Positions 1 to 17,911 of a DNA stretch of 64,000 bases are shown one piece after another. The notes under the pieces were generated by a model that worked only from the letters and a program-made list of their open reading frames with translations, was not told where the DNA came from and did not search any database. Position numbers and translations under genes: made by a program. The stretch's first letter is position 1. The number at the start of each line of letters is the position of its first letter. The DNA is from an uncultured Clostridia bacterium (GTDB lineage: Bacteria > Bacillota_I > Bacilli_A > RF39 > UBA660). The stretch covers positions 6,868 through 70,867 of the forward strand of contig CANRVH010000001.1 of NCBI GenBank assembly GCA_947643225.1, written 5' to 3'.

Positions 1-2
1 AT

Positions 3-287
3 TCCGATTTTAGAGAAGAAGTTAAGAATGTCAATATTAAAACTCCTGATATTTTTAGTTTTAATTTTTATGGAGATGATGCAAAATGGGAGACTATAGT
101 TAATTTTGTTGTAAATCATAGAGATTGTGAAAGTATAGAAATTTTAACCCATTGTGGTTATGTAGATGAGGACACAAAACAAAAAACTTCTTATATACTA
201 CGCGAAGTTGAGCTTATAGAACTAAGAAAATTAAAAAAACATTCATTTTACAAAGAGTATAAATTAAGTAAATTCAGCAATCTATAG
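3..287 (+). CDS. 3' fragment of an unknown CDS; the 5' end lies outside the window. It is probably cargo of the mobile element.
   Basis: Frame 3 is open from the window edge to TAG at 285-287 (…THCGYVDEDTKQKTSYILREVELIELRKLKKHSFYKEYKLSKFSNL*). No start codon falls in the window. It is in the same orientation as the downstream element genes. Confidence 0.3.
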   Translation, partial: SDFREEVKNVNIKTPDIFSFNFYGDDAKWETIVNFVVNHRDCESIEILTHCGYVDEDTKQKTSYILREVELIELRKLKKHSFYKEYKLSKFSNL

Positions 288-319
288 TAGTTTGTTTATA
301 AACGAATGGCGGTGATTCA

Positions 320-1294
320 ATGAAAAATAATATGCTTATATATATATCAAAAGATGGTAATGTAAAAGTAGATGTTAATATACAAAATGAAGATATATGG
401 ATGAGTCAAGATGTAATGGCTAATCTTTATGATACAACGAAACAAAATATTAGTTATCATTTAAATAATATATTTAAGGAAGAAGAACTTAATAAAGATT
501 CAGTTGTCAAAGATTTCTTGACAACTGCTAGTGATGGTAAAAACTATAATGTTTTGCACTATAATTTAGATGCAATTATAGCTGTTGGATATAGAATTAA
601 CTCTAAAAAGGCAACTGAATTTAGAATTTGGGCGACAAAAGTTTTAAAAGAATATATGATTAAAGGTTTTTCCTTAAATGATGAAAGATTAAAAAATAAT
701 GGAGAAAATCCATACTTTGAAGAATTACTTGATAGAATACGTGATATTAGATCTTCAGAAAAAATATTTTGGAGAAAAGTATTAGATATTTATGCAACTT
801 CAATTGATTACAATCCAAAAGATAAACTATCAATAGATTTTTTCAAAACCGTGCAGAATAAAATGCATTATGCTACCCATGGCAACACAGCAGCCGAGGT
901 AATATTTACACGAGTTGATTCTAATAAAGAAAATTTAGGGCTCACTAATTTTAAAGGTGCTTATCCAACAAAAAGTGAAACTGAAATTGCAAAAAACTAT
1001 TTAACAGAAGAAGAACTTAATACTTTAAACAGAATGGTGTCTGCTTATTTAGATGTTGCAGAAATTAATGCACTAGATAGACATCCTATGACAATGAAAG
1101 ATTGGGTTAATGAGTTAGATACATTTTTAAAGATGACAAGAAAAGATATTTTAAAAGATAATGGGAAAATGTCACATGAAGAAGCATTGAAGAAAGCTCA
1201 TGAAGAATATGATAAATATATTCGGACTCACTTAACAACTGCAGAACAAGATTATCTTGATGTATTAAACAAAGAAGTAGAAGAATTAAGGTGA
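320..1294 (+). CDS. RhuM-family (COG3943-like) protein
   Basis: 324 aa. The N-terminus IYISKDGNVKVDVNIQNEDIWMSQDVMANLYDTTKQNISYHLNNIFKEEEL and the GYRINSKKATEFRIWATKVLKEYMIKGF motif match the conserved core of RhuM-family proteins. The RBS is ggcggtg upstream. Confidence 0.8.
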   Translation: MKNNMLIYISKDGNVKVDVNIQNEDIWMSQDVMANLYDTTKQNISYHLNNIFKEEELNKDSVVKDFLTTASDGKNYNVLHYNLDAIIAVGYRINSKKATEFRIWATKVLKEYMIKGFSLNDERLKNNGENPYFEELLDRIRDIRSSEKIFWRKVLDIYATSIDYNPKDKLSIDFFKTVQNKMHYATHGNTAAEVIFTRVDSNKENLGLTNFKGAYPTKSETEIAKNYLTEEELNTLNRMVSAYLDVAEINALDRHPMTMKDWVNELDTFLKMTRKDILKDNGKMSHEEALKKAHEEYDKYIRTHLTTAEQDYLDVLNKEVEELR

Positions 1295-1298
1295 TATT

Positions 1299-1925
1299 AT
1301 GGCTAAATTTTCAAATTTACTAGTAATGCTTGAATTACTAAATACTGGTAGAAAATATAGTGTTAAAGAATTATCATCAGCTTTAGAGGTATCAGAAAGA
1401 GTAATTAGAGAATATAAATTATTTTTAGAAGAAGCTGGAATTTTTGTAGATACAATACGAGGTCCCTATGGTGGTTATATTTTAAGAAAAAATATTACTA
1501 TTCCTCCTCTTTTAATAGATAATAATGATATAAATATAATAAAACAAGTTATTAAAAATACTACTAATAATAAATTAAAGTCTAGTTTGAAAAATATTGA
1601 AAATAAAATAACAAAAAACTTATTAGAATTGGAAAATAACAATACTTCGTTTATAAACACAGAAGAAGAGTTAAAAGTATATAATGCTCTAAATAAAGCA
1701 ATAAAATATAATTATAAAGTAAAAATTAAGTACACTAATTTACAACACGGAGAATCGGTTAGGACTATCTATCCACTGGGAATGTATCTTTTTCAAAACG
1801 AATGGTGGTGTTCATCTTATTGGGAAGAAAAAGACGATATGAGACAATTTCATATTAAAAGAATTTTGGAGTGTAAAATCCTAGATTCAACATTTAATCC
1901 TAAAAAAATAAATATAAAATTTTAG
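1299..1925 (+). CDS. HTH-WYL domain transcriptional regulator (YafY/BrxR-like)
   Basis: The N-terminal HTH (LLNTGRKYSVKELSSALEVSERVIREYKLFLEEAGIFVDTIRGPYGGYIL) is typical of HTH_11/DeoR-N. The C-terminus has a WYL-like segment (VRTIYPLGMYLFQNEWWCSSYWEEKDDMRQFHIKRI). It starts 4 nt after the RhuM stop, so it is probably translationally coupled. Confidence 0.7.
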   Translation: MAKFSNLLVMLELLNTGRKYSVKELSSALEVSERVIREYKLFLEEAGIFVDTIRGPYGGYILRKNITIPPLLIDNNDINIIKQVIKNTTNNKLKSSLKNIENKITKNLLELENNNTSFINTEEELKVYNALNKAIKYNYKVKIKYTNLQHGESVRTIYPLGMYLFQNEWWCSSYWEEKDDMRQFHIKRILECKILDSTFNPKKINIKF

Positions 1926-1979
1926 TACAGACCAAATACCGCCTATATAAGTGGTATTTTATTTATGGGAGGGAGAAAA

Positions 1980-2450
1980 ATGTCAAACGAGAAAGAAATA
2001 AAACATTATATAGAAGTGTTTTATAATTATAACCCAGATAGGGGTACTCAAGAGGATTTTACTTATTCGCATATTGTCACGAATAGAGATCCTTTATTAT
2101 ATATGGAAAGATTTCATGGTGCTAAAGGATTTAGGTTTTTTGATGTTGATGTTTCTGATAATTCATTGAATAAAGAAAAAAGAACAAATATAAGCCCTAT
2201 GTATTATTATGGAAGGTATATGGCAGAACAAGAAATAGAGCAAGTTCATAATGTAATGCCGTTTACAATTAATATTACAAAAATGATTTATTGCTATTGT
2301 GGATGCTTGGTTACTGATTTGAATGAAGGAGATATGACATTAGAAACTTATGCAAACTTAGTAAATAATGAAGAACCTAATTTTGAAAGTAAGCAATTAC
2401 TAAAAATGTCCGTTGCATGTCCTAAAAAATGTGCTAAAATGGTAATATAG
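1980..2450 (+). CDS. hypothetical protein with Cys motifs (CYCGC…CPKKC)
   Basis: ORF in the same operon as the RhuM and WYL genes. ATG at 1980 with a GGGAGGGAG RBS is preferred over the ATG at 1965. No recognisable family. An intrinsic terminator follows it. Confidence 0.5.
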   Translation: MSNEKEIKHYIEVFYNYNPDRGTQEDFTYSHIVTNRDPLLYMERFHGAKGFRFFDVDVSDNSLNKEKRTNISPMYYYGRYMAEQEIEQVHNVMPFTINITKMIYCYCGCLVTDLNEGDMTLETYANLVNNEEPNFESKQLLKMSVACPKKCAKMVI

Positions 2451-2473
2451 GATAATTAGAAGAAGGACTGAGT

Positions 2474-2504
2474 TTGGAGAGATTTTATCTCTCTTTTTTG
2501 CGTT
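2474..2504 (+). terminator. rho-independent terminator after the RhuM-WYL-unknown operon
   Basis: GGAGAGATTTTATCTCTC hairpin followed by TTTTTTG. Confidence 0.7.
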
Positions 2505-2689
2505 CTTTTTTAATTATTCTATCAGAAAGGAGCGTGAAATATGAATGAAATATATTTAAACTGTCGGAGACTATAATGGGTCTTAGGGATTTCTCCCTAA
2601 CAAGAAAAGGGTGTGATAGCACCATGCTTGATAGTTTGAAATTATACTATGTGTCATAAGATGGAGATGATAATCTGAAAAACAAATGG

Positions 2690-3208
2690 ATGTATAGAAA
2701 TGATGTAGAAAGAAATTTAGGTGTATCAAGGAAACAATTAAATCATGCTATTAAAGTAATGGAAAAATATCATTATTTTGAAAATTGGATTTGGTATAAA
2801 TTAGGGCCAACTGATTTAATTGTTTTATTTAATTTAGAATTTGTTGATTGGTTAAAAGATGTATATTTTAATAAAGATGGATTTTTCTTAGACAGAGAAA
2901 TCCATTTTTTAAATGAAAAAATTAAAGATTTAGAAAATGAATTAGGTATTTCTCATTACGAGAAAAATTATCCATATCTAAATGTAAAAGAACTACAAGA
3001 ATACTTTGATAAAAGTAATAGCTCTATTTTAAAGGCAATTGAAAGAATGAATAGAAAAATTGATTGTAAATGCTATAAAGATGGAAAATTATATATTACT
3101 CCTACTGGAGTAAAATGGTTAGATCAAAACTATTATAGAAAATCATACCTTAAAGAGTTGTTAAATTATAAAAAAATACTAAATGAAAAGGAGAATAAAA
3201 ATGACTAA
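2690..3208 (+). CDS. hypothetical protein, possibly DNA-binding (element cargo)
   Basis: 172-aa ORF. The C-terminal segment VKELQEYFDKSNSSILKAIERMNRK looks HTH-like. No confident family assignment. Confidence 0.4.
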   Translation: MYRNDVERNLGVSRKQLNHAIKVMEKYHYFENWIWYKLGPTDLIVLFNLEFVDWLKDVYFNKDGFFLDREIHFLNEKIKDLENELGISHYEKNYPYLNVKELQEYFDKSNSSILKAIERMNRKIDCKCYKDGKLYITPTGVKWLDQNYYRKSYLKELLNYKKILNEKENKND

Positions 3209-3593
3209 AGTTGATAGAAGAAAGAAAATAAATATCATGTTAAATGATGAAGAAAGAAGAATAATTACAGAAAAAGCAGTTGAATATGGATTTGGTCCAC
3301 ATCTTGCTACCTATGTTAGAAGTGCTTGTATTTATGAATCTTTATATAAAGAAGATATAGAAGGTAAAAATGAAATAATTAAAATAATGAGTGATTATAT
3401 TAGTGTTGTTAATAGAATACAATATGAGCAATCACAGTTAACTAAAAAAATTATGTTAAGTGAAGGAGATATACACATGATTAAAGATAATAATACTCTT
3501 CTTCATAATGAAATAAGAAAGCTAATTAAGACAATTGAAAATACATTAACAGTTAAACGTGTAAAAGAAACTAAGCAGAAACTAAATAAATAG
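3201..3593 (+). CDS. MobC-like ribbon-helix-helix protein (mobilisation accessory type)
   Basis: RRKKINIMLNDEERRIITEKAVEYGFGPHLATYVRSACI resembles the MobC/RHH family core (R…I.VRLT.EE…L…A…G.S.S.Y.R). ATG 3201 with an AAAGGAG RBS. It overlaps the upstream ORF. Confidence 0.5.
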   Translation: MTKVDRRKKINIMLNDEERRIITEKAVEYGFGPHLATYVRSACIYESLYKEDIEGKNEIIKIMSDYISVVNRIQYEQSQLTKKIMLSEGDIHMIKDNNTLLHNEIRKLIKTIENTLTVKRVKETKQKLNK

Positions 3594-3659
3594 CTTCTGC
3601 TTTTTCTTAAAGTATTATTTTACAATTTTTCTCATAGTTTTAAATAAAGGAGATGAGTT

Positions 3660-3857
3660 ATGGATTCTAATGATATTATGAGAAGTAAAGAAGTAAAATA
3701 TAAGAATAAAGAAATACTTTTAGAAGTGGCTCTTTCCTTAAATAAAGAGTTATTTGATGAAAATAAAATTTCATATAAAATGTTTAAATATACAGAAGAA
3801 AATATTTTAAAAGAATTAAAAATTTGTAATGTAAGTGGTGCAAATGCTAATACATGA
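3660..3857 (+). CDS. small hypothetical protein immediately upstream of the serine recombinase; could be a recombination directionality factor
   Basis: 65-aa ORF with an AAGGAG RBS. The proposed role rests on position only. Confidence 0.25.
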   Translation: MDSNDIMRSKEVKYKNKEILLEVALSLNKELFDENKISYKMFKYTEENILKELKICNVSGANANT

Positions 3858-3897
3858 AAATAATATGGTATAATGCTATTAGAAAGGAGAAGAAGAG

Positions 3898-5607
3898 TTG
3901 GATTTATATACTGTTCGAAAGCAGTTAAATATGGGAATGCCACTTACAAGTATAAAATTAAGAGTAACAGATTATGCAAGAGTATCAACAGATCATTTAG
4001 AACAAAAAAAATCTCTTCAAAATCAAGTGGAACATTTTGAACAATATATAAAAGAAAATCCAAATTGGACTTATACACCTGGTTATGTAGATGATGGAAT
4101 AACTGGTACAAGTGATGTTAAAAGAGATAACTTTATGAAAATGATTGAAGATGCTAGAGGTGGTAAATTTGATTTAATAGTTACCAAAGAAATTTCTAGA
4201 TTTTCAAGAAATACTCTTGATAGTATTAAATATACAAGAGAACTTTTATCGTATGGAGTGGCTGTTTTATTTGTAAATGATAATATTAATACTGCCCTAC
4301 CTGATTCAGAACTAAGACTTACTATTATGGCTTCCATGGCACAAGATGAAATAAGAAGATTATCAGAACGTGTTAAATTTGGTATGAATCGTGCAATAGA
4401 ACGCGGAGAAATATTAGGGAATGATTTACTTTATGGTTATAAAAAAGATAAAGATACTGGAGTATTAAATATTATAGAGGAAGAAGCAAAAGTTGTTAGA
4501 AGAATTTATGAACTATATACAGTTGAAGAATTAACACTTTCTAAAATAGTTAAAACTTTAAATAGCGAAGGATTAAAAACTTGTCAAGGTAAGAAATGGT
4601 GTATATCTACAATTTCACGGATGATTGAAAATCCTAAATATAAAGGATATTATTGTGCAAGAAAATCTGAAATAGTAGATTATATGACTAAAAAGATAAA
4701 ATACTTTGAAAAAGATGATTGGGTTATTTATGAGGATAAAACAAGAATACCACCAATAATTGATGAGGATTTATGGGATAGAGCTAATAATCGTTTAATA
4801 ACAAGAAAAAAAGCATTTAGCGAACGAAAAGAGGATAAAAGTATTTATAAAAATAGATACTTATATAGTGCTAAAATATTTTGTGCTGAACACAATACAG
4901 TTTTTCATAGAAGAGAATTTAGAAAAAATAAAAAAGATATTACTTGGGTTTGTTCCGAATATTTAAAAAATGGTAAATCTAATTGTGATTCACCAAATAT
5001 TAGAGAATCTGAACTAGATTCAATTTTTAAAGATTTAATTTCTAAACTTCAAATTGATTCTAACCAAGTAGTTGAAACTCTTATGAATTATTACAAACAT
5101 TTAGAAATTGATACTGGTATAGATGAAGAAATAAGTTTGAGAGAAAAAGAAATAAATAATCTTTATGCTAAAAAAGATAAATTATTAGAACTTAGTTTAC
5201 AAGGTAGTTTATCAAATACTGAATTTTATGAAAGGAATAGTTCTTTTAATGAAAAAATTAAAGTTCTTGATAATGAACTTAATAAGTTAAAAAGTCAAAA
5301 AGATGAACTAAAAGGAACAACAGATAAAACTAAAGAACTTGCTGAAATCTTAAAACAAAAAGTTAATTCTAAATCTACAATAGATAAAATAATTAGTTCT
5401 TTACTAGAGCGTATTGTTGTATCTAAAATATGTAATGATAAAAACAATATGGAATTAAATATATTTTTATCTTACAAGGAGAATGACGAAACAAAAAAAC
5501 TACAACCTATTTTAAGAAGTAGTTATGAATTTAAAAGAGGATATGACACACAAGGAACTAAAAGATATAAGGTCAATTATCAAGTGAATTGTTATTTTTG
5601 TCTATAA
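3898..5607 (+). CDS. large serine recombinase (resolvase/invertase catalytic domain, recombinase domain and C-terminal coiled-coil)
   Basis: YARVSTDHLEQ carries the catalytic Ser. The resolvase core reads DDGITGT…FDLIVTKEISRFSRNTLD and a recombinase domain follows. At 569 aa it is typical of integrative-element integrases. TTG at 3898 with a GAAAGGAG RBS, or ATG at 3931, could be the start. A TGGTATAAT extended -10 lies at about 3866. Confidence 0.85.
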   Translation: MDLYTVRKQLNMGMPLTSIKLRVTDYARVSTDHLEQKKSLQNQVEHFEQYIKENPNWTYTPGYVDDGITGTSDVKRDNFMKMIEDARGGKFDLIVTKEISRFSRNTLDSIKYTRELLSYGVAVLFVNDNINTALPDSELRLTIMASMAQDEIRRLSERVKFGMNRAIERGEILGNDLLYGYKKDKDTGVLNIIEEEAKVVRRIYELYTVEELTLSKIVKTLNSEGLKTCQGKKWCISTISRMIENPKYKGYYCARKSEIVDYMTKKIKYFEKDDWVIYEDKTRIPPIIDEDLWDRANNRLITRKKAFSERKEDKSIYKNRYLYSAKIFCAEHNTVFHRREFRKNKKDITWVCSEYLKNGKSNCDSPNIRESELDSIFKDLISKLQIDSNQVVETLMNYYKHLEIDTGIDEEISLREKEINNLYAKKDKLLELSLQGSLSNTEFYERNSSFNEKIKVLDNELNKLKSQKDELKGTTDKTKELAEILKQKVNSKSTIDKIISSLLERIVVSKICNDKNNMELNIFLSYKENDETKKLQPILRSSYEFKRGYDTQGTKRYKVNYQVNCYFCL

Positions 5608-5637
5608 GTTAGACATATAATTTTTCACTTGGCGACT

Positions 5638-6252
5638 TCATTTTCGCGCACTTTGTTCAAATAGACATACAAAGTCACCAGTACCACCAATAAATGCACT
5701 ACTCATAGCAGCAAAACTAACAGAAGTATCAATATTAACATCTTTTTTTGGATTAAGACCAGCTTCACGAATTGCCCATTCAAGAGTCATTTCAGGCATA
5801 CCTCCAGCACGACCACCAATAATTGTTTTCCCCTTTAGATCTTCCAGTTTAAAATTATCAATTTTCTTTCTAGAAACAATAAAATTACCATCTTTTTGAG
5901 TAAGTTGAGCGAATGTTTTTAAATAATCTTTTTCCCCGCTATTATAAATATAAATAGTTGCTTCACTTCCAGAAAAACCAATATCAGCATCTCCTGCTAA
6001 AACAGCAGCAGTAACTTTATCAGCTCCAGGTGTTAAACTCAAATTAATATCAATTCCCTCGTCCCTAAAAAATCCTTTTTCAATAGCAACATATTGAGGT
6101 GCATAAAAAATTGTATGTGCAACCTCAGCTACAGTAATCTTTTTTAATTTTTCCTTTTTATCCTTTTTTTGATCATTAAAATTAAAGAATATAGCACAAA
6201 TAGCTAATAATAAAATAATAATACTAACTACATATAAAATAATTTTTTTCAA
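5638..6252 (-). CDS. NMT1/THI5 (SsuA-like) ABC-transporter substrate-binding protein, apparently truncated at the C-terminus (204 aa versus about 320 aa typical)
   Basis: Signal/anchor MKKIILYVVSIIILLLAICAIFF, then the SsuA-like fold motifs (ITVAEVAHTIFYAPQYVAIEKGFFRDEGIDINL…GDADIGFSG). The ORF stops 30 nt from the recombinase stop. Confidence 0.55.
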   Translation of the reverse strand: MKKIILYVVSIIILLLAICAIFFNFNDQKKDKKEKLKKITVAEVAHTIFYAPQYVAIEKGFFRDEGIDINLSLTPGADKVTAAVLAGDADIGFSGSEATIYIYNSGEKDYLKTFAQLTQKDGNFIVSRKKIDNFKLEDLKGKTIIGGRAGGMPEMTLEWAIREAGLNPKKDVNIDTSVSFAAMSSAFIGGTGDFVCLFEQSARK

Positions 6253-6384: not shown

Positions 6385-7656
6385 ATGAAAAATAATAAAA
6401 TAACAAAAACAATGTTAGTATTACTAATTACAATTACATCATTTTTTACAACAATGAGTAATGCCTTTGCTGAAGTGCCAAATAAAATTAATGTGACATC
6501 AACACCAGCTGTCAAAGGATATATTGGAGAAAAAGTAAACTTTGGAACAAAATCATTAAATGATGGTAGTGTTGCATACTGTTTAGATTACAATAAGTTA
6601 ACTCCAGATCATGCTATTGGAACATTAGCAGGTGAAATGGATGCAGGAATGGCCTATTTAATTGAAAATGGTTATCCACATAAAACCATAACAGGAGATA
6701 AAGCAAAAGATTATTATATTACACAAGTAGCAATTTGGTGGTATTTAGATGAAACAACAGGATCAACAAACTTAACTAATGAATTTAAAACAACAGATAG
6801 TGATCCACAAAATTTAAGACCAACCATAAAAAAGCTAGTAGATAATGCCAAAATAGTTAAAAATAAAGGATACAAAAATCCAAGTCTATCAGCAACAATC
6901 ACAAATAGAAAATTAACGATCTCAACAGATAAAAAATATTATATTTCAGACGAGATAAAAGTAAATTTAACAGATTTAGAAAGTTATACAGTTTCATTAA
7001 CAACCGCACCTGAAGGAAGTTATATAGCAGATGGAAAAGGAAATAAGAAAACAACTTTCCAAAAAGGAGAAACATTTAAAGTTTATGTCAAACAAACTGA
7101 TCAAAAAATTAAAAAAAGTGATATTAAGATAAAAATTAGTGGAACAACAACAATAAATAAAGTATACAAGTATAATCCAGAAAATGATGTAGAGCAAAGA
7201 ATATTAACTGCAGTTCTTTATCCAACAACAATAAAAAAAGAACAAGATCTATCTTTGACAATCTCACCATCAAAAGTAACAATTAATAAAATTGATGCAG
7301 AAACAAAAAAAGCCTTAGCAGGGGCAGTTCTTGTAGTAAAAGACAAAGCTGGAAATATTGTTGCAGAATTTACAACAAGTGAAGAATCTTATATTATTGA
7401 AGACTTAAGTAATGGAGAATACGAAGTATCAGAAAAAAGTGCTCCCGAAGGATATATCTTAAGCGAAAAAACATATCAATTTACGATTGATGATGATAAC
7501 AGAAATCACACAGTCATATTTGAAAATTATAAAGAAATATATGTTCCAGATACAAACTCTAATAGCACAATAATGTATATACTAGGTACAATCATAATGG
7601 TATCAGGTATCTCATTTGTAATCTACAATGCTAAGAAAAAACAAATTAATAAATAA
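6385..7656 (+). CDS. thioester-domain (TED) surface adhesin with a CnaB/SpaA-type domain and a non-canonical sortase sorting signal
   Basis: Signal peptide present. The TED Cys motif AYCLDYNK and Gln motif YITQVAIWWY are both there. A CnaB-type domain reads AGAVLVVKDKAGN…EYEVSEKSAPEGY. The C-terminus is IYVPDTNSNST followed by a hydrophobic helix and a KKKQ tail. Confidence 0.75.
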   Translation: MKNNKITKTMLVLLITITSFFTTMSNAFAEVPNKINVTSTPAVKGYIGEKVNFGTKSLNDGSVAYCLDYNKLTPDHAIGTLAGEMDAGMAYLIENGYPHKTITGDKAKDYYITQVAIWWYLDETTGSTNLTNEFKTTDSDPQNLRPTIKKLVDNAKIVKNKGYKNPSLSATITNRKLTISTDKKYYISDEIKVNLTDLESYTVSLTTAPEGSYIADGKGNKKTTFQKGETFKVYVKQTDQKIKKSDIKIKISGTTTINKVYKYNPENDVEQRILTAVLYPTTIKKEQDLSLTISPSKVTINKIDAETKKALAGAVLVVKDKAGNIVAEFTTSEESYIIEDLSNGEYEVSEKSAPEGYILSEKTYQFTIDDDNRNHTVIFENYKEIYVPDTNSNSTIMYILGTIIMVSGISFVIYNAKKKQINK

Positions 7657-8299
7657 AAAGAAACATGAAGTAAGTTCTAATACGATTGCCATGATATCAA
7701 GTATTGTCATTTTATTAGGACTCTTCATTTTTTCTTATAATTATACTAAATCTAAAAAAATATTAGCCTATGAACAAATGAATAACATCTTTTATGAAGA
7801 TCATTCAAAGACAGAAAAGAAAGAAAATAAAAAACAACAAAAAGAAGAAAAAATACAAGAACAAGAGGAGAAAAAGGAAATCATCACAAATGATTACATA
7901 GGCTATTTAGAGATACCAAAAATAAAGTTAAAAAAAGGGTTTGTTAGTAAAAAATCAAGTGATAATGATGTGGAAAAAAATATCTTTATAGTAGAACAAT
8001 CTACCTATCCTGATAAAGAAAAAGGTAACTTCATTATTGCCGCACATTCAGGAACTGGCTGGAAAGCTTTCTTTAATGATTTATATCAATTAGAACAAGG
8101 TAATGAGATTTATGTTACTTATAAAAATAAAAAATATACCTATAAAATAGCAGATATTTATAAGCAGAAAAAAACAGGAACTATCGCTATATATAGAGAT
8201 TATAATAAAACAACATTAACATTAGTAACCTGCACAAACAATGATGATACATCACAGACAGTTTATATTGCTTATTTAGAAAAAATAGAAAATTTATAG
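7628..8299 (+). CDS. class B-type sortase
   Basis: N-terminal TM helix, the His motif IIAAHSG and the catalytic TLVTCT motif. It overlaps the end of the adhesin gene. An ATG at 7691 is an alternative start. Confidence 0.8.
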   Translation: MLRKNKLINKKKHEVSSNTIAMISSIVILLGLFIFSYNYTKSKKILAYEQMNNIFYEDHSKTEKKENKKQQKEEKIQEQEEKKEIITNDYIGYLEIPKIKLKKGFVSKKSSDNDVEKNIFIVEQSTYPDKEKGNFIIAAHSGTGWKAFFNDLYQLEQGNEIYVTYKNKKYTYKIADIYKQKKTGTIAIYRDYNKTTLTLVTCTNNDDTSQTVYIAYLEKIENL

Positions 8300-8315
8300 A
8301 AGGGGGGAATAAAAA

Positions 8316-9293
8316 ATGATGAATGAATTATCTCTAATAGAAAAATTTAAAGTTGTCTTTGATATTACCAAATCAAATATCGTTTATCCAATTATTATAA
8401 TTTTTTTACTAATTATCAGCTTTCTATTTATAACAACAAATAAAAATAATGCCAAAGAAAGTAAAAAAGTTTATGGAAGCCTATATGCTATTTTAATGAT
8501 AATAATTTTAATTAAATATGCGACTTCATTAAAAACAATGATAGACTATATGATGAATCATTTATTTATTGTTTTTTACTTTCCCAATATTGCCGTTTAT
8601 TTAACAGCAATCCTCATCACAAATATCATCATGTGGATCAGTATGTTTAAATCATCTACTAAAACTATAATAAAAATAATCAATGCAACAATATTTTCTA
8701 TAATTCATTACATCTTACTTTTAATCCTTGGAATCATTACAACAAAAAAGATAGACGTCTTTAATCAAAAAGCACTATATGCTAATCACGATATTCATGC
8801 TTTAATTGAATTAAGCAGTAATATTTTTATAATATGGATGATCTTTCTTATCCTTTACAAAATAATTTATACTTATCTTGAAAGCAAAAAAGGACAAAAA
8901 ATCTATGATAACCAATTACTTGCAATAGAACAAGTCCAAAAAGTAGAAAAAGAAGGAACTGTAACAATTAATCTTCCAAAAAACATTAAAGAAGTAAGAG
9001 CACCATATCTAGTAAAAAGAGAAATGTCTAAAACAAGAATTGTTTATCAATTACCAAAACAAATGGAAAATACAGCTATTTATGAACAAATGTTGACTTT
9101 AGATGATTATAAATTATTAGTTTCCCTATTAAAAGAAGAAAAAGAAAAAGGGGTAAAAACAATCTTAAATAATCAGAAACACACGATAAACAAAGAAAAA
9201 ACAGAAGAAGAAAGGTTGACCCAAAAAAACAAACAGTCCCAACCAGAAAGTGGACTATCAGAATTGATGAGATTATATAAAAGTACAAGCTAA
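8316..9293 (+). CDS. polytopic membrane protein, function unknown
   Basis: Several hydrophobic helices and a charged C-terminal tail. A G6 run lies in the RBS (aggggggaat). Confidence 0.5.
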   Translation: MMNELSLIEKFKVVFDITKSNIVYPIIIIFLLIISFLFITTNKNNAKESKKVYGSLYAILMIIILIKYATSLKTMIDYMMNHLFIVFYFPNIAVYLTAILITNIIMWISMFKSSTKTIIKIINATIFSIIHYILLLILGIITTKKIDVFNQKALYANHDIHALIELSSNIFIIWMIFLILYKIIYTYLESKKGQKIYDNQLLAIEQVQKVEKEGTVTINLPKNIKEVRAPYLVKREMSKTRIVYQLPKQMENTAIYEQMLTLDDYKLLVSLLKEEKEKGVKTILNNQKHTINKEKTEEERLTQKNKQSQPESGLSELMRLYKSTS

Positions 9294-9335
9294 AATAAAA
9301 AAGTTAGTAAATAATTTTCAAATTATAACTAAGAG

Positions 9336-9366
9336 AAATAGAGAAAATATTTCTCTTTTTTGTAAA
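9336..9366 (+). terminator. rho-independent terminator
   Basis: AGAGAAATAGAGAAAATATTTCTCT hairpin followed by TTTTTG. Confidence 0.6.
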
Positions 9367-9449
9367 ATTCAAAATAAAATATGATCAATATATATCTAAA
9401 CTAAAGATTTTTCATTAACCATTTGCTACAATAAAACTAGGAAAAAATT

Positions 9450-10265
9450 CAAAATAAAAAGAAAAATAAGGCAGAAATACATATCCAATTTAGAAAAAAT
9501 AGAAGATTTTAATTTTGAAGAACAACGGTTACTATACCCCAATTCCAAAAGAATTGATCAAGATAGATACACCATATTATTAGAAAAAGAATACAACGAA
9601 GATTGTTTAAGTGTAGCAATTAACATTAAAACTAAAGCAGAGGAAGAATTTAACTATGATTATAGGCAAATAAAAAAATAATGAATAAAAATGGAAGAAA
9701 AGCATCTGCCTTTATTCGACAAGAGGAATTATTAAATAACTTAGACTTTAATGAAAAGGGATTAATGATAACAAATAATAGTATATGGTTAATTTTAGAT
9801 AATTAAAAAAATTCCCAGTAGAATACGACCATCAAATAAAAATAACAAGAATAGATTCCAACCAAGAAAATGAGTATGTAAGAAAAGTTGCAGAAGGATT
9901 CCAAAAAAAGTAGTGAAGCCAATCCAGACGACGATTTATTAGAAAATATCCTTAATACTATAAAGAGAAGCTTTTATCAACAGAAAAAATTTAAGATAGA
10001 ACATTATTTAGCCCAAATAGATAAAGAGCTTGTTGATACCATAACAATCATGTATAAAGATGATATTTCATTTATCTATAATGTAGCAGCAGATAAAAAA
10101 TATCGAAAAAGGGGAGTTTAATTAAAGCTGTAGTAAAAAGATTAGTCGAATTAGAAATAATCAAGTCATATTACCAAACAGAATATGAATATTATCCTGA
10201 AAAAATAAATCAGAAATTAGGATTTAAAATACTCTTTAGAGGAGTGAAATATACAAAACAATAAT
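9450..10265 (+). pseudogene. GNAT-family N-acetyltransferase pseudogene (multiple frameshifts and stops)
   Basis: GNAT motifs are spread over three frames: …VRKVAEGF…, IYNVAADKKYRKRGV (motif A) and LGFKILFRGVKYTKQ* (C-terminal). The only intact ORF is the 77-aa fragment at 9888-10121. Confidence 0.5.
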
Positions 10266-10363
10266 TACAGTACAAACTATGGAAAAGGACAATATACACT
10301 TTCTTGATAACACAACTTAAAATGAATTTAATCTCAAACTCCCCTAATTTCAAGCCAACTTTT

Positions 10364-10395
10364 CTTTGCCTAAAAATTTAGAATACGATATAATG
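10364..10395 (+). promoter_or_regulatory. promoter TTGCCT-N17-TATAAT upstream of pcrA
   Basis: Read directly: ttgcctaaaaatttagaatacgatataat. Confidence 0.45.
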
Positions 10396-10414
10396 AATTT
10401 AGAGGTAAAGAAAT

Positions 10415-12514
10415 ATGAAGATTGATAATTTAAATGAACAACAAAAAAAAGCCGTTTTATATAACGAGGGACCTCTATTAGTTCTAGCAGGAGCAGGTAG
10501 TGGTAAAACCAAAGTACTAACCACAAAAATTGCTTATCTAATAGAAGAAAAAAATATAGATCCTGATCATATTTTAGCTATTACATTTACAAATAAAGCT
10601 GCTAAAGAAATGAAAGATAGAGTATATAATCTAATAGGAAATTATGCAAAATATATTCAAATATCAACCTTTCATAGCTTTGGACTAAGATTATTAAGAG
10701 AAAATTGTGAAGTTTTAGGATATGATCGAAATTTTGTTATTATGGATAGTGATGATTCACTAACTGTTGTGAAAAAGATATTGAAAGATAGCAATTACGA
10801 TCCTAAAATTTATAATCCACGAGCAATTAGAAATAAAATCAGTGGTTGTAAAAATGAATTGATGAGCCCAGAAAAATATGAAAGATATGCTACTAGTGAA
10901 TATGAAAAAGTTACCTTAGAAGTATATCAAAAGTATGAGAAAAAGTTAAAACAAAATAATTCTGTGGATTTTGATGACTTATTAATATTACCAATCAAAT
11001 TATTGAAAGAAAATTCATCTATTTTGCAAAAATATCAAGAGAAATTTCAATACATTTTAATTGATGAATATCAAGATACAAATGAAGCACAATATATTCT
11101 AACAAAAATGCTAAGTGCCAAATATAGAAAAATCATGGTTGTAGGAGATGACTTTCAAAGTATTTATTCCTTTAGAGGTGCTAATTATAAAAATATTTTA
11201 AACTTTGAAAAAGACTATCAAGATTCCGAAACTATTCTTCTAGAACAAAATTACCGTTCAACAGGAAATATCCTAAAAGCAGCAAATGACGTGATAAAAC
11301 ATAATAGAGAAAGAAAAGACAAAAACTTATGGACAGAAAATGAACTTGGAGAAAAGATTAAATATTATCGTGCCTTTAATGAACGGGATGAAGCTCAATA
11401 TACAATACGAAAAATAAAAGAATTAACAAATAAAGAAGTAGCATACAAGGATATCGCTATATTATATAGAACAAATGCACAGTCACGGATTATAGAAGAA
11501 GAAATGTTAAAAGAAAATTTACCATACCGAGTAGTAGGAAGTTTTTACTTCTATAATAGAAAAGAAATCAAAGATTTAATCGCTTACTTAAGATTAATTC
11601 ACAATGATAAAGATAATGTCTCCCTAACTAGAGTAATTAATACTCCAAAAAGAGGAATAGGTTTAAAAACGATACAAAATATCACAGAAAAAGCCGATTC
11701 CTTAGGAGTAAGTATGTATGATGCCATATCATCAGGTAAAGAATTAGATTTTAAAAATACAATAGAAGAATTAAAAAAAGTATCTGAAAATATTACTTTA
11801 ACCGAATTAATTGATAAAGTACTAGATACAACAGGAATAAAAGAAGAATTAGAAAAAGAAAATTCTCTAGAGTCTGAAGTAAGACTAGAAAATTTAGAAG
11901 AATTTAAATCTATAACAAAAGCCTTTGAAGAAAAAGAAGGACTAATCTCCTTAGAAGATTTTTTATTAGAAATTAGTCTAGTAAGTGATGTAGAAGAATA
12001 TAAAAACGATGACAACAGAATTAATTTAATGACGATCCACTCCGTAAAAGGATTAGAGTTTGATTATGTTTTTATTGTTGGATTAGAAGAAGGAATATTT
12101 CCTCATATCAATAGCTTGATGGACAACTCTGAATTAGAAGAAGAAAGAAGACTTTGTTATGTAGCAATCACTAGAGCAAAAAAGGATTTGCATTTAGTAA
12201 ATACCCGTAGAAGGACTTTATTTGGAAAAGATCAAATCAATCCAACTAGTAGGTTTATTGCTGAAATTAATCAGGATTTAATCGAGACTAATGTTCAGAA
12301 AGAAGAGATGCCAGTTCTAAAGAAAGATAAGACAGAAATGTTTAGAGAGGAAAATATCGATTATCAGGTAGGAGATTATGTTTATCATGAATCATTCGGA
12401 ACAGGTAAAGTAGTAGAAGTAACGAATACTTTAGTAAGTGTTGCCTTTAAACATCCATTTGGAATAAAAAAATTAATGAAAAATCATAAAAAATTGGCGA
12501 AAGTAACCAATTAG
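10415..12514 (+). CDS. pcrA: ATP-dependent DNA helicase PcrA (UvrD family)
   Basis: Walker A AGAGSGKTKVLTTKIAYL, motifs II DEYQDTN, III VVGDDFQSIYSFRGA and VI VAITRAK. The C-terminal Tudor-like tail is present. Confidence 0.92.
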   Translation: MKIDNLNEQQKKAVLYNEGPLLVLAGAGSGKTKVLTTKIAYLIEEKNIDPDHILAITFTNKAAKEMKDRVYNLIGNYAKYIQISTFHSFGLRLLRENCEVLGYDRNFVIMDSDDSLTVVKKILKDSNYDPKIYNPRAIRNKISGCKNELMSPEKYERYATSEYEKVTLEVYQKYEKKLKQNNSVDFDDLLILPIKLLKENSSILQKYQEKFQYILIDEYQDTNEAQYILTKMLSAKYRKIMVVGDDFQSIYSFRGANYKNILNFEKDYQDSETILLEQNYRSTGNILKAANDVIKHNRERKDKNLWTENELGEKIKYYRAFNERDEAQYTIRKIKELTNKEVAYKDIAILYRTNAQSRIIEEEMLKENLPYRVVGSFYFYNRKEIKDLIAYLRLIHNDKDNVSLTRVINTPKRGIGLKTIQNITEKADSLGVSMYDAISSGKELDFKNTIEELKKVSENITLTELIDKVLDTTGIKEELEKENSLESEVRLENLEEFKSITKAFEEKEGLISLEDFLLEISLVSDVEEYKNDDNRINLMTIHSVKGLEFDYVFIVGLEEGIFPHINSLMDNSELEEERRLCYVAITRAKKDLHLVNTRRRTLFGKDQINPTSRFIAEINQDLIETNVQKEEMPVLKKDKTEMFREENIDYQVGDYVYHESFGTGKVVEVTNTLVSVAFKHPFGIKKLMKNHKKLAKVTN

Positions 12515-12527
12515 AAAGAGAGAAAAA

Positions 12528-13448
12528 ATGAAAAAAGAGTTAACTTTAGTAATTATGGCTGCTGGAATGGGAAATCGTTTTGGTGGATTAAAACAAATAG
12601 AAACGATGGGACCAAATGATGAATTTATTATTGATTATTCTGTTTACGATGCAATTTTAGCAGGATTTACCAAAATAGTATTTATTATAAAAAGAGAAAA
12701 TTTTGAAGTATTTAAAGAAACAATAGGATATAGAATAGAAGATAAAATAAAAGTAGAGTATGTTTTTCAAGAGTTAAATAATCTACCAACAGGTTATACA
12801 ATTCCAAAAGAAAGAGAAAAACCTTTAGGGACAGCCCAAGCAATTTTATGTTGTAAAAATAATGTGAATACACCCTTTGCAATTATTAATGCTGATGATT
12901 TTTACGGAAGAGATGCCTATTTTAAAGCAAGTGAATATTTAAAAACAATAAAAAATGATTCGAATAATTATGCCATGATAGCCTACCATATCAAAAATAC
13001 TTTAACAGAAAATGGTGCAGTAAAAAGAGGAGTATGCAAAGTTGAAAATAATCTTTTAGTAGACCTAATAGAAAGTAATGTCGAACGAAAAAATGCTAAA
13101 ATTATTGCATCTCCCCTAAATCACGATCCTTCATTCGAAATCGAAGAAAATCAAACTGTTTCTATGAATATGCTTTTATTTACACCAACCATTTTTAAAT
13201 TTATTGAAGAAAACTTTCCCACATTCCTAAAAGATAATCAAGAAAACTTATTAAAAGCAGAATACTTAATTCCTGATCTACTTCAAAAACTTTTAAAACA
13301 AAATAAAGTAACAACAAAAGTAATAGAAACGACCTCAAACTGGTATGGTGTTACTTATAAAGAAGATAAAGAGCATGTTCAAAGAGCCATCCAAGAATCA
13401 ATTACAGAAAAAATATATCCAAAAAATTTATGGAGAAATGATGAATAG
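12528..13448 (+). CDS. sugar-phosphate nucleotidyltransferase family protein
   Basis: N-terminal LVIMAAGMGNRFGG is the NTP-transferase fold G-loop. It is about 300 aa. Confidence 0.55.
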   Translation: MKKELTLVIMAAGMGNRFGGLKQIETMGPNDEFIIDYSVYDAILAGFTKIVFIIKRENFEVFKETIGYRIEDKIKVEYVFQELNNLPTGYTIPKEREKPLGTAQAILCCKNNVNTPFAIINADDFYGRDAYFKASEYLKTIKNDSNNYAMIAYHIKNTLTENGAVKRGVCKVENNLLVDLIESNVERKNAKIIASPLNHDPSFEIEENQTVSMNMLLFTPTIFKFIEENFPTFLKDNQENLLKAEYLIPDLLQKLLKQNKVTTKVIETTSNWYGVTYKEDKEHVQRAIQESITEKIYPKNLWRNDE

Positions 13449-13944
13449 AGAAGAAGAATTATTCAATATTCTGTTAAATGAAAAAGAAAAGTATACTTTA
13501 ATTATCAATAAAAAAGCACCTAATAATGAACTCATGTTATTAAAAGTGGGAAGTTTAGAAGGAGCTCAAAAATATTACCCAAATAAAGATTTTGTTATTT
13601 TAATAGAAAGAGATAATTTAAAAGTATGTTTAGAAAAAATCAAAGAATTAAAGCTAACAGATTATGATGTTGTATTTTTAGATACCTTAAATTTCCAAGA
13701 TTTCTATATTACAATAAGATACCTAAATCTGTATACCACAGTAAGAAGTATCATTATGGATTCAGCCTTAAGAAAGGAAAAAGAGAAAAAAGAGGGAAAA
13801 ATAGAAGAAAAAATCAAAGAGGAAATAGACCAAGTAGCAGAAAAATACGAGTTAACCGCTCTTGATGAATTACTATTAGGAAAAAAAATAGACGCAATCA
13901 AAGATTATGCTAAAGAAAAAAATATTTCTATTAATTTACTATAA
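13438..13944 (+). CDS. hypothetical protein
   Basis: The ORF track starts at 13345 inside the upstream gene. The ATG at 13438 with a GGAG RBS, overlapping the upstream stop, is the more likely start. Confidence 0.4.
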   Translation: MMNREEELFNILLNEKEKYTLIINKKAPNNELMLLKVGSLEGAQKYYPNKDFVILIERDNLKVCLEKIKELKLTDYDVVFLDTLNFQDFYITIRYLNLYTTVRSIIMDSALRKEKEKKEGKIEEKIKEEIDQVAEKYELTALDELLLGKKIDAIKDYAKEKNISINLL

Positions 13945-13998
13945 AATACTTTTAAATTTATAACATATATCTTATAATATAAGAAAGGAGGAATAAAA

Positions 13999-14646
13999 TT
14001 GACAAATAAAAATGAGTTATATCCTAAAGTGTTTACTTGGCTTTTTATTGGATTATTAGTAACCTTTATAACAGGTTATTCACTATCAATTAATATGGGC
14101 CTATTAAGCAGTCTGCTTACTGGAGGAAACTATGTTTTTCTAATTATAATAGAATTAGCAATCGCAATTTTTTTCTCAGTTAGATTATCCAAAATGTCTA
14201 AAATAACAGCAATAATTTGCTATTTACTATATTCTTTTATAACAGGAATAACTTTTTCAACAATTTTTATAGCCTTTGCTATGGAATCCATTATGCTAGT
14301 ATTTGCTGTAACATCAATTGTCTTTGGAATATTCGCTTTAATTGGATATACAACAAAGAAAAATCTATCATCATGGTCAACATTCTTACTAATGGCATTA
14401 TTAGGAGTAGTAGTAACTAGTATAGTAAATATTTTTCTACAAATACCACAATTAGATTTCATCATAACATTAATTTCTATTGTCGTATTTATTGGCTATA
14501 TTATTTATGATATGAAAAGAATACAAACATTAGCAGAAATCAATGAGGAAAGTGGACCAATATATGGAGCTTTTCAACTATACCTAGACTTTATTAATCT
14601 ATTCTTAGACTTATTAAAGCTACTAGGAAAATCAAACGATAATTAA
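13999..14646 (+). CDS. BAX inhibitor-1/YccA family membrane protein
   Basis: Seven predicted TM helices. The N-terminus YPKVFTWLFIGLLVTFITGY is typical of BI-1/YccA proteins. TTG start after an AGGAGG RBS. Confidence 0.65.
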   Translation: MTNKNELYPKVFTWLFIGLLVTFITGYSLSINMGLLSSLLTGGNYVFLIIIELAIAIFFSVRLSKMSKITAIICYLLYSFITGITFSTIFIAFAMESIMLVFAVTSIVFGIFALIGYTTKKNLSSWSTFLLMALLGVVVTSIVNIFLQIPQLDFIITLISIVVFIGYIIYDMKRIQTLAEINEESGPIYGAFQLYLDFINLFLDLLKLLGKSNDN

Positions 14647-14649
14647 TAG

Positions 14650-16701
<2,052 letters not shown>

Positions 16702-16759
16702 TATATAAATTAAGGAACTCAATATAGATGAATTTAGAAGTAAAACAACTAATTGATAT

Positions 16760-17135
16760 AGATAAAGAAATAAAATGACAATTTGGATTTATGAATAGCG
16801 AAGTAAAGAAGCAACCTATAATTTTGAAGAAATAAAATGTTTAATGAAACATAGCATATAAAAAAAGATTACAACAAACATAGGGATCCTTTTTAGATAA
16901 CAAAATAATCGGCATATACCAATTTACATACGAAGATTAGATGTAAGACCAGATTTTATCCATATCCTATTAATGGTCTATATTGATAAAAAATATCGAA
17001 AAAGAGGCTATGCAGCAAAATTATTAATAAATATTCAAGAAAAGTCCAAAGAAAAAATTTCGCTCAAAGAGATCTTCTTAGATAAAAAAATATATTGGTT
17101 TCTATGAAAAATATGGTTGAGTATTTGTATCCAAA
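16760..17135 (+). pseudogene. second GNAT acetyltransferase pseudogene, paralogous to the one at 9450-10265
   Basis: The reading frame is broken. It contains …LLMVYIDKKYRKRGYAAKLLINIQEKSK… (motif A) and …YEKYGW/EYLYPK. The same DKKYRKRG signature occurs in the other copy. Confidence 0.4.
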
Positions 17136-17338
17136 ATAAATACCTATATGAAAAAATAACACAATATATAAATAGAAATTATATATTTATGGGTAATGAT
17201 AAAATTGTAGAATCTTGACAAAAATAGGATAAAAGTTTGTGAACAAATACGAATAAATACCCTTTCATCACTTTCAATAACGAATTAAAATTAACTAAAT
17301 GAATGATTACATGATCACTAGAAAGGAGAAAGTAGAAA

Positions 17339-17911
17339 ATGAAAAAAGAAATCATGACAATAGTAGAAAGCTATTTACAAATTTTTAAAGATGAACAGAA
17401 AAGACAAGATGAACTTTTACAATTTTTAAACAAAACTGAAGAACAAAAAATAACAGATTGGAACAATTTTTGTGGACATATAGTAGCAAGTGTCTTTATC
17501 TATGCCAAAAGAGAAAAAAGGTTTTTAGTTTTATATCATAAAGATTTAAAAATGTATTTATATCCTGGTGGACACATAGACAAAGAAGATAAAGATATTT
17601 TAGAAGCAGCCAAAAGGGAATTACAAGAAGAAACAGGCATTACGAAATTTAAGCAATTACTAATAAAGAATAAGAAAATACCTATAGACATCAGTTCTCA
17701 TACAACACCATACAATAAACGACTAAACTTACCAAAACATAGACACTTTGATTTTAGATATTTATTTATGATTGAAAAAATAGTGGAAATAAAACAAGAT
17801 ACAGAAGAATTAGGAGACTATAAATGGATTGACTTAAAGGAATTGTCACAAGATAAACATTATGGAAAAATATCGAAAAAAATAGAAAAGGTATTAAACG
17901 AGAATAAATAA
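17339..17911 (+). CDS. NUDIX hydrolase
   Basis: Nudix box GGHIDKEDKDILEAAKRELQEETGI. Confidence 0.75.
   Translation: MKKEIMTIVESYLQIFKDEQKRQDELLQFLNKTEEQKITDWNNFCGHIVASVFIYAKREKRFLVLYHKDLKMYLYPGGHIDKEDKDILEAAKRELQEETGITKFKQLLIKNKKIPIDISSHTTPYNKRLNLPKHRHFDFRYLFMIEKIVEIKQDTEELGDYKWIDLKELSQDKHYGKISKKIEKVLNENK

Follow-up and report, generated by a model that had tools for sequence, protein, structure and literature searches.

We analysed a 64,000-nucleotide stretch of DNA from an uncultured Clostridia bacterium of the GTDB lineage RF39 (contig CANRVH010000001.1 of GenBank assembly GCA_947643225.1, positions 6,868 to 70,867 of the forward strand; hereafter the window), in which the gene of a large serine recombinase (LSR) lies next to a shortened gene for the substrate-binding protein of an ABC transporter. 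We propose, with a probability of about 90%, that positions 1-5658 of the window form the right part, 5.66 kb long, of an integrative cassette of 7,722 bp that was inserted by its own LSR within a codon of the binding-protein gene. The two open reading frames (ORFs) that meet at the right end of the element are:

3898-5607, + strand: large serine recombinase, 569 amino acids (aa), TTG start (ORF table)
5638-6252, - strand: truncated NMT1/SsuA-type substrate-binding protein ORF, 204 codons, C-terminus ...FEQSARK* (ORF table and profiles)

The initial annotation had described both ORFs and a gap of 30 nt between them, and we find them at these coordinates in the ORF table and with Pfam; their stops are exactly 30 nt apart (5608-5637). 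The LSR carries the Pfam domains PF00239 Resolvase (E=2e-32, residues 26-171), PF07508 Recombinase (E=2e-23, residues 194-300) and PF13408 Zn_ribbon_recom (E=1e-9, residues 322-381), with the catalytic motif YARVSTD in the N-terminal resolvase domain, the nucleophilic-serine domain; DUF4368 was not detected in it with Pfam. It also matches PHROG 95 'integrase' (E=4e-113), and judging from its sequence it would be the integrase of the element. The binding-protein ORF covers positions 5-145 of 216 in the NMT1 profile of Pfam and positions 12-147 of 290 in the SsuA_fam profile, and no more. Going by this profile coverage, the full two-lobe binding-protein domain (~330 aa) is not present in the window ORF.

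Homologue lengths, drawn from the 120 best matches in the protein collection, fall into two classes: 72 proteins of 317-333 aa and 47 of 198-225 aa. While the intact homologues share ...GDFVxLFEPNA[LT]xxE..., the short ones are colinear with them up to ...LF(E/D). These 47 short forms part from the intact ones at one point, at least 42 of them right after ...LF(E/D) and two slightly later, after ...LFEPNA, and their tails are unlike one another (QSARK, QSVRE, DSARIMTLYF, DNVSKRK). Such mutually different tails after one common point rule out a naturally short protein. The initial annotation had named homologues of naturally about 200 aa as the observation that would speak against its reading; the short forms that exist all break at the same point.

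A tblastn search of the window with an intact homologue gave only the known fragment, so that the 3′ part of the gene, and with it the left end of the element, lies outside the window. The missing part was found on an 8.3-kb ENA metagenome contig, L001, on which a RhuM gene of the window (320-1294) recurs. The last 2,228 bases of L001 are those of window 1-2228 at 100% identity, and window position x corresponds to L001 position x+6121. On this contig we find:

L001 4057..3659, - strand: missing 3′ part of the binding-protein gene, codons 199-331 (133 codons); the operon's ATPase and permease genes come next

The remainder of the gene thus lies where the initial annotation had expected it, beyond the left end of the element and outside the window, 2.06 kb to the left of it on L001, and the view that an LSR-borne element splits the binding-protein gene here is borne out. 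Joining the two flanks in silico gives a gap-free 331-aa ORF that is 91% identical to the intact homologue P0006. This 331-aa gene is found uninterrupted in the empty-site loci L003-L005, whose right-hand neighbours (TED-SpaA protein, sortase, 328-aa protein, PcrA; TED, thioester domain) match those of the window; the comparison with element-free relatives proposed in the initial annotation hence gives both an intact gene and the same surroundings. Aligned with the composite of L001 and the window, L003 yields two blocks, which share the 4 nt GAAC in L003 and are 7.72 kb apart in the composite. The element measures 7,722 bp from core to core, with its left end 2.06 kb beyond the window, and the binding-protein ORF is made of 198 host codons of a ~331-codon gene and six element-derived codons. 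That everything to the right is core chromosome is supported by synteny to about window position 12,000, and shown no further. Right of the insertion, window 6385-8299 (+ strand) encodes the TED SpaA-type surface protein and the sortase, which are kept beside the operon in empty-site loci.

The junctions define the attachment sites at the nucleotide level. In gene sense, the empty site reads ...CTATTT GAAC CTAATGC..., the window junction ...CTATTT GAAC AAAGTGCGCGAAAATGAAGTC... and the L001 junction ...GACTTCTTATACTTGCACTAAGA GAAC CTAATGC..., and GAAC is the sole sequence common to the empty site and both junctions. Across ~45 related loci only the dinucleotide GA, the first two bases of the Glu199 codon, is invariant at both junctions. 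On the window, the comparison of junctions resolves the right attachment site as follows:

roughly 5634-5681, no strand: right attachment site, an attP/attB hybrid
5634-5656, + strand: element-derived half-site, GACTTC-N8-GCACT-N4
5657-5658: crossover dinucleotide, TC on the + strand (GA in gene sense); the host half starts at 5659

The coding sequence is accordingly composite: its host-derived part (5657-6252) holds codons 1-198 and the GA of the Glu199 codon, and its element-derived part (5638-5656) supplies the last base of that codon, the codons of QSARK and the stop. The right attachment site had been placed at about 5608-5640; the crossover lies at 5657-5658, inside the ORF, and the earlier estimate was about 20 bp too far left. 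The reconstructed cores are ...CTATTTGAACCTAATGC... for attB and ...GCACTAAGAGAACAAAGTGC... for attP. The full attP of 48 bp, GACTTC-N8-GCACT-N4-GA-N4-AGTGC-N8-GAAGTC, is an imperfect inverted repeat symmetric about GA, with 18/30 positions matching outward from the centre, and related loci show that its arms are conserved as well as symmetric. A 48-bp attP that is symmetric about a non-palindromic 2-bp core, with minimal identity between attP and attB, is the anatomy expected for a serine-integrase site. Altogether, the locus possesses every feature by which LSR elements are recognised at the sequence level, and we regard it as a genuine one. No compositional boundary marks the element edge, the GC content being 0.23-0.29 on either side, and a scan for promoters and terminators found sites no more frequently than in shuffled sequence.

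The same insertion recurs in other species. Scanning one genome per species with the LSR, we found ~50 loci with LSRs that are 55-97% identical to it, all in genome bins of uncultured bacteria from animal guts, which carry the labels Bacilli, Mollicutes, Tenericutes or Erysipelotrichaceae; one of these loci, OZ006981.1, is a complete 1.31-Mb chromosome. In ~45 other species-level genomes the binding-protein gene is split beside an LSR relative, and in every family locus with enough flank the split falls between F198 and E199. For 33 elements both ends are in hand: they measure 2.8-17.2 kb (median 5.6 kb) and have the 3′ gene part on their far side. LSRs that are 95-97% identical occur in hosts with a binding protein that shares only 48-71% identity with the reference; in L006, for instance, the LSR is 97% identical and the flanking binding-protein fragments 54-65%. 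This decoupling of LSR identity from host identity indicates horizontal spread. Literature searches brought up no account of either the target or the family, and the LSR lineage would, by its sequences, be a new LSR family. A divergent branch of LSRs (L047, L048, L050, L051 and L056 at 55-63% identity, L036 at 75%) has the LSR ~200 bp from the left end and the cargo downstream of it, so that the module order is flipped and the target codon unchanged. In L037, the 5′ gene fragment (13144-13731, + strand) is opposite in orientation to the 3′ fragment (8408-8010, - strand), which points to an inversion between two attachment sites or two elements.

Directly upstream of the LSR lies a small gene that accompanies it throughout the family:

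3660-3857, + strand: o65, 65 aa, family unknown (tblastn conservation)

With tblastn, o65 was recovered ahead of the LSR in 44 loci, with protein identities of 40-98% and the core motif LNKELFDENKISYKMFKYTEENILKEL, and o65 and the LSR are the only gene pair conserved across the element family. Its 299 database homologues are without Pfam domain or annotation, and o65 itself has no match in Pfam, PHROG or PADLOC. The AlphaFold2 prediction is a two-helix hairpin with a mean pLDDT (predicted local distance difference test score) of 81. Similar small ORFs also precede more distant LSRs (L014 15797-16084, L206 6149-6388). We tentatively suggest that o65 could be a directionality factor for the LSR, or a regulator of it, while considering that it may well be neither. 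Some arrangements depart from the common one. In L040, one element holds two o65-like copies (8562-8702 and 9820-9975), one of them with an internal stop, and in L039 the o65-like ORF (8541-8684) is 1.3 kb away from the LSR; both arrangements are signs of rearrangement or of tandem elements. A 103-aa ORF at window 3632-3943 (- strand) is antisense to o65 and overlaps the start of the LSR. A gene is unlikely here: the ORF passes the 70-aa threshold in 8/33 complete elements only, and the + strand o65 frame is kept in 44 loci.

The remainder of the cassette is cargo:

3-284, + strand: YdjC, 3′ end (Pfam)
320-1294, + strand: RhuM (Pfam; PADLOC PDC-S05)
1299-1925, + strand: WYL/helix-turn-helix regulator (Pfam)
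1965-2450, + strand: 161-aa protein of unknown function
2690-3208, + strand: 172-aa protein of unknown function
3183-3593, + strand: 136-aa ribbon-helix-helix protein, weakly NikA-like
L001 4058-6121, the remaining 2.06 kb of the element: NUDIX-alpha/beta-hydrolase fusion and start of YdjC

The cargo genes of the window (1..3593) are all co-oriented with the LSR. Cargo varies between the elements, from one accessory gene to several; across the 33 of them it amounts to ~69 clusters, nearly always on the strand of the LSR, and elsewhere in the family it includes a HAD hydrolase, a short-chain dehydrogenase, an HD-domain protein, a GH3 glycosidase, a nucleoside hydrolase-NT5C fusion, an ABC exporter gene pair and an APH-like kinase. 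RhuM, which is present in 15/33 elements, matches the PADLOC candidate defence family PDC-S05 with E=5e-147. We considered the label 'defence island' and dropped it, PADLOC having matched only RhuM (PDC-S05) and the WYL protein; on ten other cargo representatives of the family it gave no convincing defence match. The NikA-like match of the 136-aa protein (residues 12-52, E=6e-4, 20.4 bits against a Pfam cut-off of 27) is sub-threshold, and the genes of the 172-aa and 136-aa proteins occur together in 8/33 elements. Pfam and PHROG scans of the cargo found no capsid, terminase, portal, tail, replication/packaging-hijack, relaxase or coupling-protein family, the PHROG matches being to integrase, NUDIX hydrolase and families of unknown function only. 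In 50,697 phage records, no LSR is closer than 41% identity (MT837325.1). This 7,121-bp record (L206), labelled 'Bacteriophage sp.', ends in a 563-aa LSR with an o65-like 79-aa ORF upstream. Its other ORFs, of which the translations were read with no domain search, appear sugar-nucleotidyltransferase-, ThyX- and deaminase-like, phage genes not being evident on this reading, and the record resembles a piece of chromosome from a bacterium of higher GC content.

The same operon is hit at other positions by three further LSR lineages:

L029 9886-11439: 517-aa LSR at about codon 149 of the binding-protein gene, running into the truncated gene
L014 16122-17891: 589-aa LSR at about codon 98 of the binding-protein gene, also in L013
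L001 920-2260, + strand: ~450-aa LSR at about codon 206 of the ~262-codon permease gene, with the permease fragment at 2304-2927 (- strand); also L003 7725-9728

The insert in L029 is 4.3 kb long (7189-11471) and also carries a collagen-like repeat protein; the fragment pattern at codon ~149 alone is seen in L023, L024, L030, L036, L044, L051 and L053. In L014 the insert measures 5.8 kb (12067-17843), and the small ORF before its LSR (15797-16084) encodes 95 aa with the o65-like motif ...KKLYEDNFISFDIYEKIKEEI... The permease is cut at ...SLIG|VIMGE..., by an LSR 29% identical to that of the window, and this arrangement is found in L003-5, L007, L021, L034, L044 and L050 and on L001. For the second recombinase of L001, of which the called gene is 331 aa long, a frameshifted pseudogene was considered and rejected, as tblastn recovers one open frame of 447 aa. 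The operon is thus a multi-site landing pad, interrupted twice in the window's own genome, which L001 represents.

From these data we propose the following course of events. The LSR would recombine the 48-bp attP with an attB inside the coding sequence of the substrate-binding protein, with the crossover at the GA of the Glu199 codon. The gene would thereby be left as a 5′ fragment finished by six element codons and a 3′ fragment 7.7 kb off, and the operon promoter would no longer reach the latter or the ATPase and permease genes. All genes of the element are antisense to the operon, so that its distal genes are likely to undergo polar effects. As the LSR is the only mobility gene, with no phage, conjugation or relaxase genes found, the element behaves as a site-specific chromosomal cassette of the SCC (staphylococcal cassette chromosome) type. 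We infer that the LSR is still active, and that the cassette would pass between cells by means of other elements, by transduction, or by transformation with subsequent recombination. On its own, an LSR should catalyse attP x attB recombination. Excision by LSRs normally needs a directionality factor bound to the second DNA-binding domain (PMC12286644), and some transposon or cassette LSRs, TndX and Ccr among them, carry out both integration and excision unaided (PMC4430133, PMC12286644).

Several observations weigh against this proposal. The left end is taken from another assembly, the ENA contig L001, and the link consists of 2,228 identical bases. A homologue search returned no empty site more than 92% identical to the gene of the host, and within-species polymorphism is thus not seen. 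The pattern specific for attP, that is for the excised circular form, had 0 matches in JGI metagenomes; a broader attP/attL pattern matched 112 stretches there and 10 in IMG/VR, of which 6 are true family members, all 6 of them attL and 0 attP, too few to decide. One of the short homologues, P0013 (204 aa), is a mosaic, with residues 1-99 identical to P0006 and residues 100-198 only 70-85% identical, which hints at some spread via homologous recombination of flanks instead of LSR integration; it could reflect host flank co-transferred with the element by homologous recombination, or an assembly chimera. Finally, TndX-type LSRs need no partner protein (PMC4430133).

Other explanations of the locus have to be weighed as well. 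A length of ~200 aa might be natural for the binding protein of this lineage, with the recombinase adjacent by chance, as 47 of the best 120 homologues of 198-225 aa might suggest; this we regard as practically refuted, by the 3′ part on L001, the far-side fragments and the excision in silico. Indeed, all short forms part at the same point with unrelated tails, in 33 loci the 133 codons that are lacking reappear beyond the element, and the NMT1 match ends at 145/216. Nor is the 7.7-kb block likely to be a decayed prophage or the remnant of a conjugative element rather than a complete small cassette. The match of the LSR to PHROG 95 'integrase', the RhuM and WYL genes, which are common in prophages, and the weak NikA-like match (E=6e-4, below the cut-off), which could be the leftover of a mobilisation module, all lean that way, but both attachment junctions are intact and symmetric, and the 33 relatives are all small (2.8-17 kb) with ends and LSR intact. 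The scanned cargo genes include no capsid, terminase, portal, relaxase or coupling protein, and the 50,697 phage records hold no LSR closer than 41% identity, the one at that level being in a record that looks chromosomal. We therefore hold such decay to be very improbable. An integrative mobilisable element is the least unlikely of these alternatives, though still an improbable one; here the 136-aa and 172-aa proteins would serve as the accessory module of a relaxosome at an unrecognised oriT, and a conjugative element in the same cell would lend its relaxase and pore. It would account for the NikA-like match at residues 12-52 of the 136-aa protein and for the joint travel of the two genes in 8/33 elements; the match is however below the Pfam threshold, no relaxase family was matched in the cargo, no search aimed at an oriT having been made, and the gene pair is missing from most members, including the smallest, which are equally widespread.

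The insertion could also be a reversible switch of the kind known from skin/sigK, SPbeta/spsM and the fdxN element, in which the LSR and o65 would excise the cassette under regulation and make the binding-protein gene whole again at times of demand for the transporter. An intact ORF would result from precise excision, the two fragments are free of stops and frameshifts here and none were seen in the tblastn matches of other loci, and a small partner protein is conserved beside the LSR, which has a weak NCBIfam match to XisF (E=2e-24). Yet the decoupling of LSR and host makes the insertions look recent, which is enough to explain intact fragments, and an attP/attB junction from an occupied strain was not seen in JGI metagenomes or IMG/VR. 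A second LSR element truncates the permease gene in the same genome, and two interruptions in one operon weaken the regulatory reading; four sites of the operon hit by four LSR lineages fit a dispensable target better. We thus judge a switch to be decidedly unlikely, and retain an integrative cassette inserted by its own LSR.

In its broadest form, our proposal would hold that o65 and the LSR are a self-sufficient minimal module for integration and excision, in elements down to 2.8 kb, that o65 founds a new family of directionality factors, that such cassettes are a main route by which reduced-genome gut Bacilli exchange accessory enzymes and defence genes, and that the operon is a four-site landing pad for four LSR lineages; taken together, this larger picture is speculative and on balance doubtful. 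As a mobile element, the cassette is well defined but of an ordinary kind, and it overturns nothing, site-specific LSR insertion into conserved coding sequence being already well documented. Its interest lies elsewhere. A precise natural attP/attB pair (48 bp, GA core), with its recombinase and dozens of variants, is raw material for serine-integrase engineering, and o65 is a compact candidate partner protein for the role of directionality factor. Uncultured gut Bacilli with small genomes swap individual accessory genes by way of very small LSR cassettes that target one operon, which bears on gene flow in a poorly studied gut lineage. In the annotation of these genome bins, 200-aa 'binding proteins' are to be read as split genes.

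Among known systems, SCC elements (SCCmec, with Ccr recombinases) resemble this cassette in being neither phage nor conjugative, in having LSRs as their only mobility genes, and in combining one conserved chromosomal-gene site with variable accessory cargo and neighbouring cassettes that can pile up. CcrB and CcrC are the best NCBIfam matches of the LSR (E about 3e-35), but its scores of 122 bits for CcrB and 121 for CcrC against a cut-off of 900, and of 56 for CcrA against 700, place it outside these families. SCC elements also use a CcrAB pair, whereas a single LSR is found here, with a conserved 65-aa partner. They target the 3′ end of rlmH (orfX), which is preserved, while the present cassette enters the binding-protein gene at codon 198/199, in its middle, and destroys it. 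The hosts differ as well: staphylococci for SCC, and here uncultured gut Bacilli with genomes of ~1.3 Mb.

With TndX and TnpX (Tn5397, Tn4451), the LSR shares a GA crossover and a protein-coding target, the GA dinucleotide and a conserved protein-coding target being documented for TndX (PMC4430133). The best solved-structure match of its catalytic domain is 3g13, a C. difficile 'putative conjugative transposon recombinase' (E=8e-39), and TnpX matches too. DUF4368 is present in 63% of LSRs of the multi-targeting clade, which includes the TndX-like subfamily, and in 0.73% of site-specific LSRs (Durrant et al. 2022, PMC10083194). Unlike most LSRs of the multi-targeting clade, the LSR studied here is without DUF4368. 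Unlike TndX/TnpX, it keeps to a strict single site across ~45 genomes, and no conjugation or mobilisation module was recognised among the cargo families found in its elements.

The skin/SpoIVCA, SPbeta/SprA/SprB and fdxN/XisF systems are alike in that an LSR element interrupts a gene and precise excision restores the frame. Small directionality factors are known for them, and the SPbeta integrase is a detectable relative of this LSR (E=6e-13). Unlike these systems, the elements described here are horizontally mobile between species and not fixed, with no sign of regulated excision; vertical fixation is disfavoured because LSRs that are 95-97% identical sit in hosts that have only 48-71% binding-protein identity to the reference. 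The main text of Durrant et al. 2022 (PMC10083194) mentions neither an NMT1/SsuA-type target at codon 198/199 nor this LSR/o65 family. It does report diverged LSRs at one conserved site in a gene, for example 33 LSRs in a prolyl isomerase gene (PMC10083194), and these site-specific clusters are the same phenomenon as the family described here: many diverged LSRs at one within-gene position.

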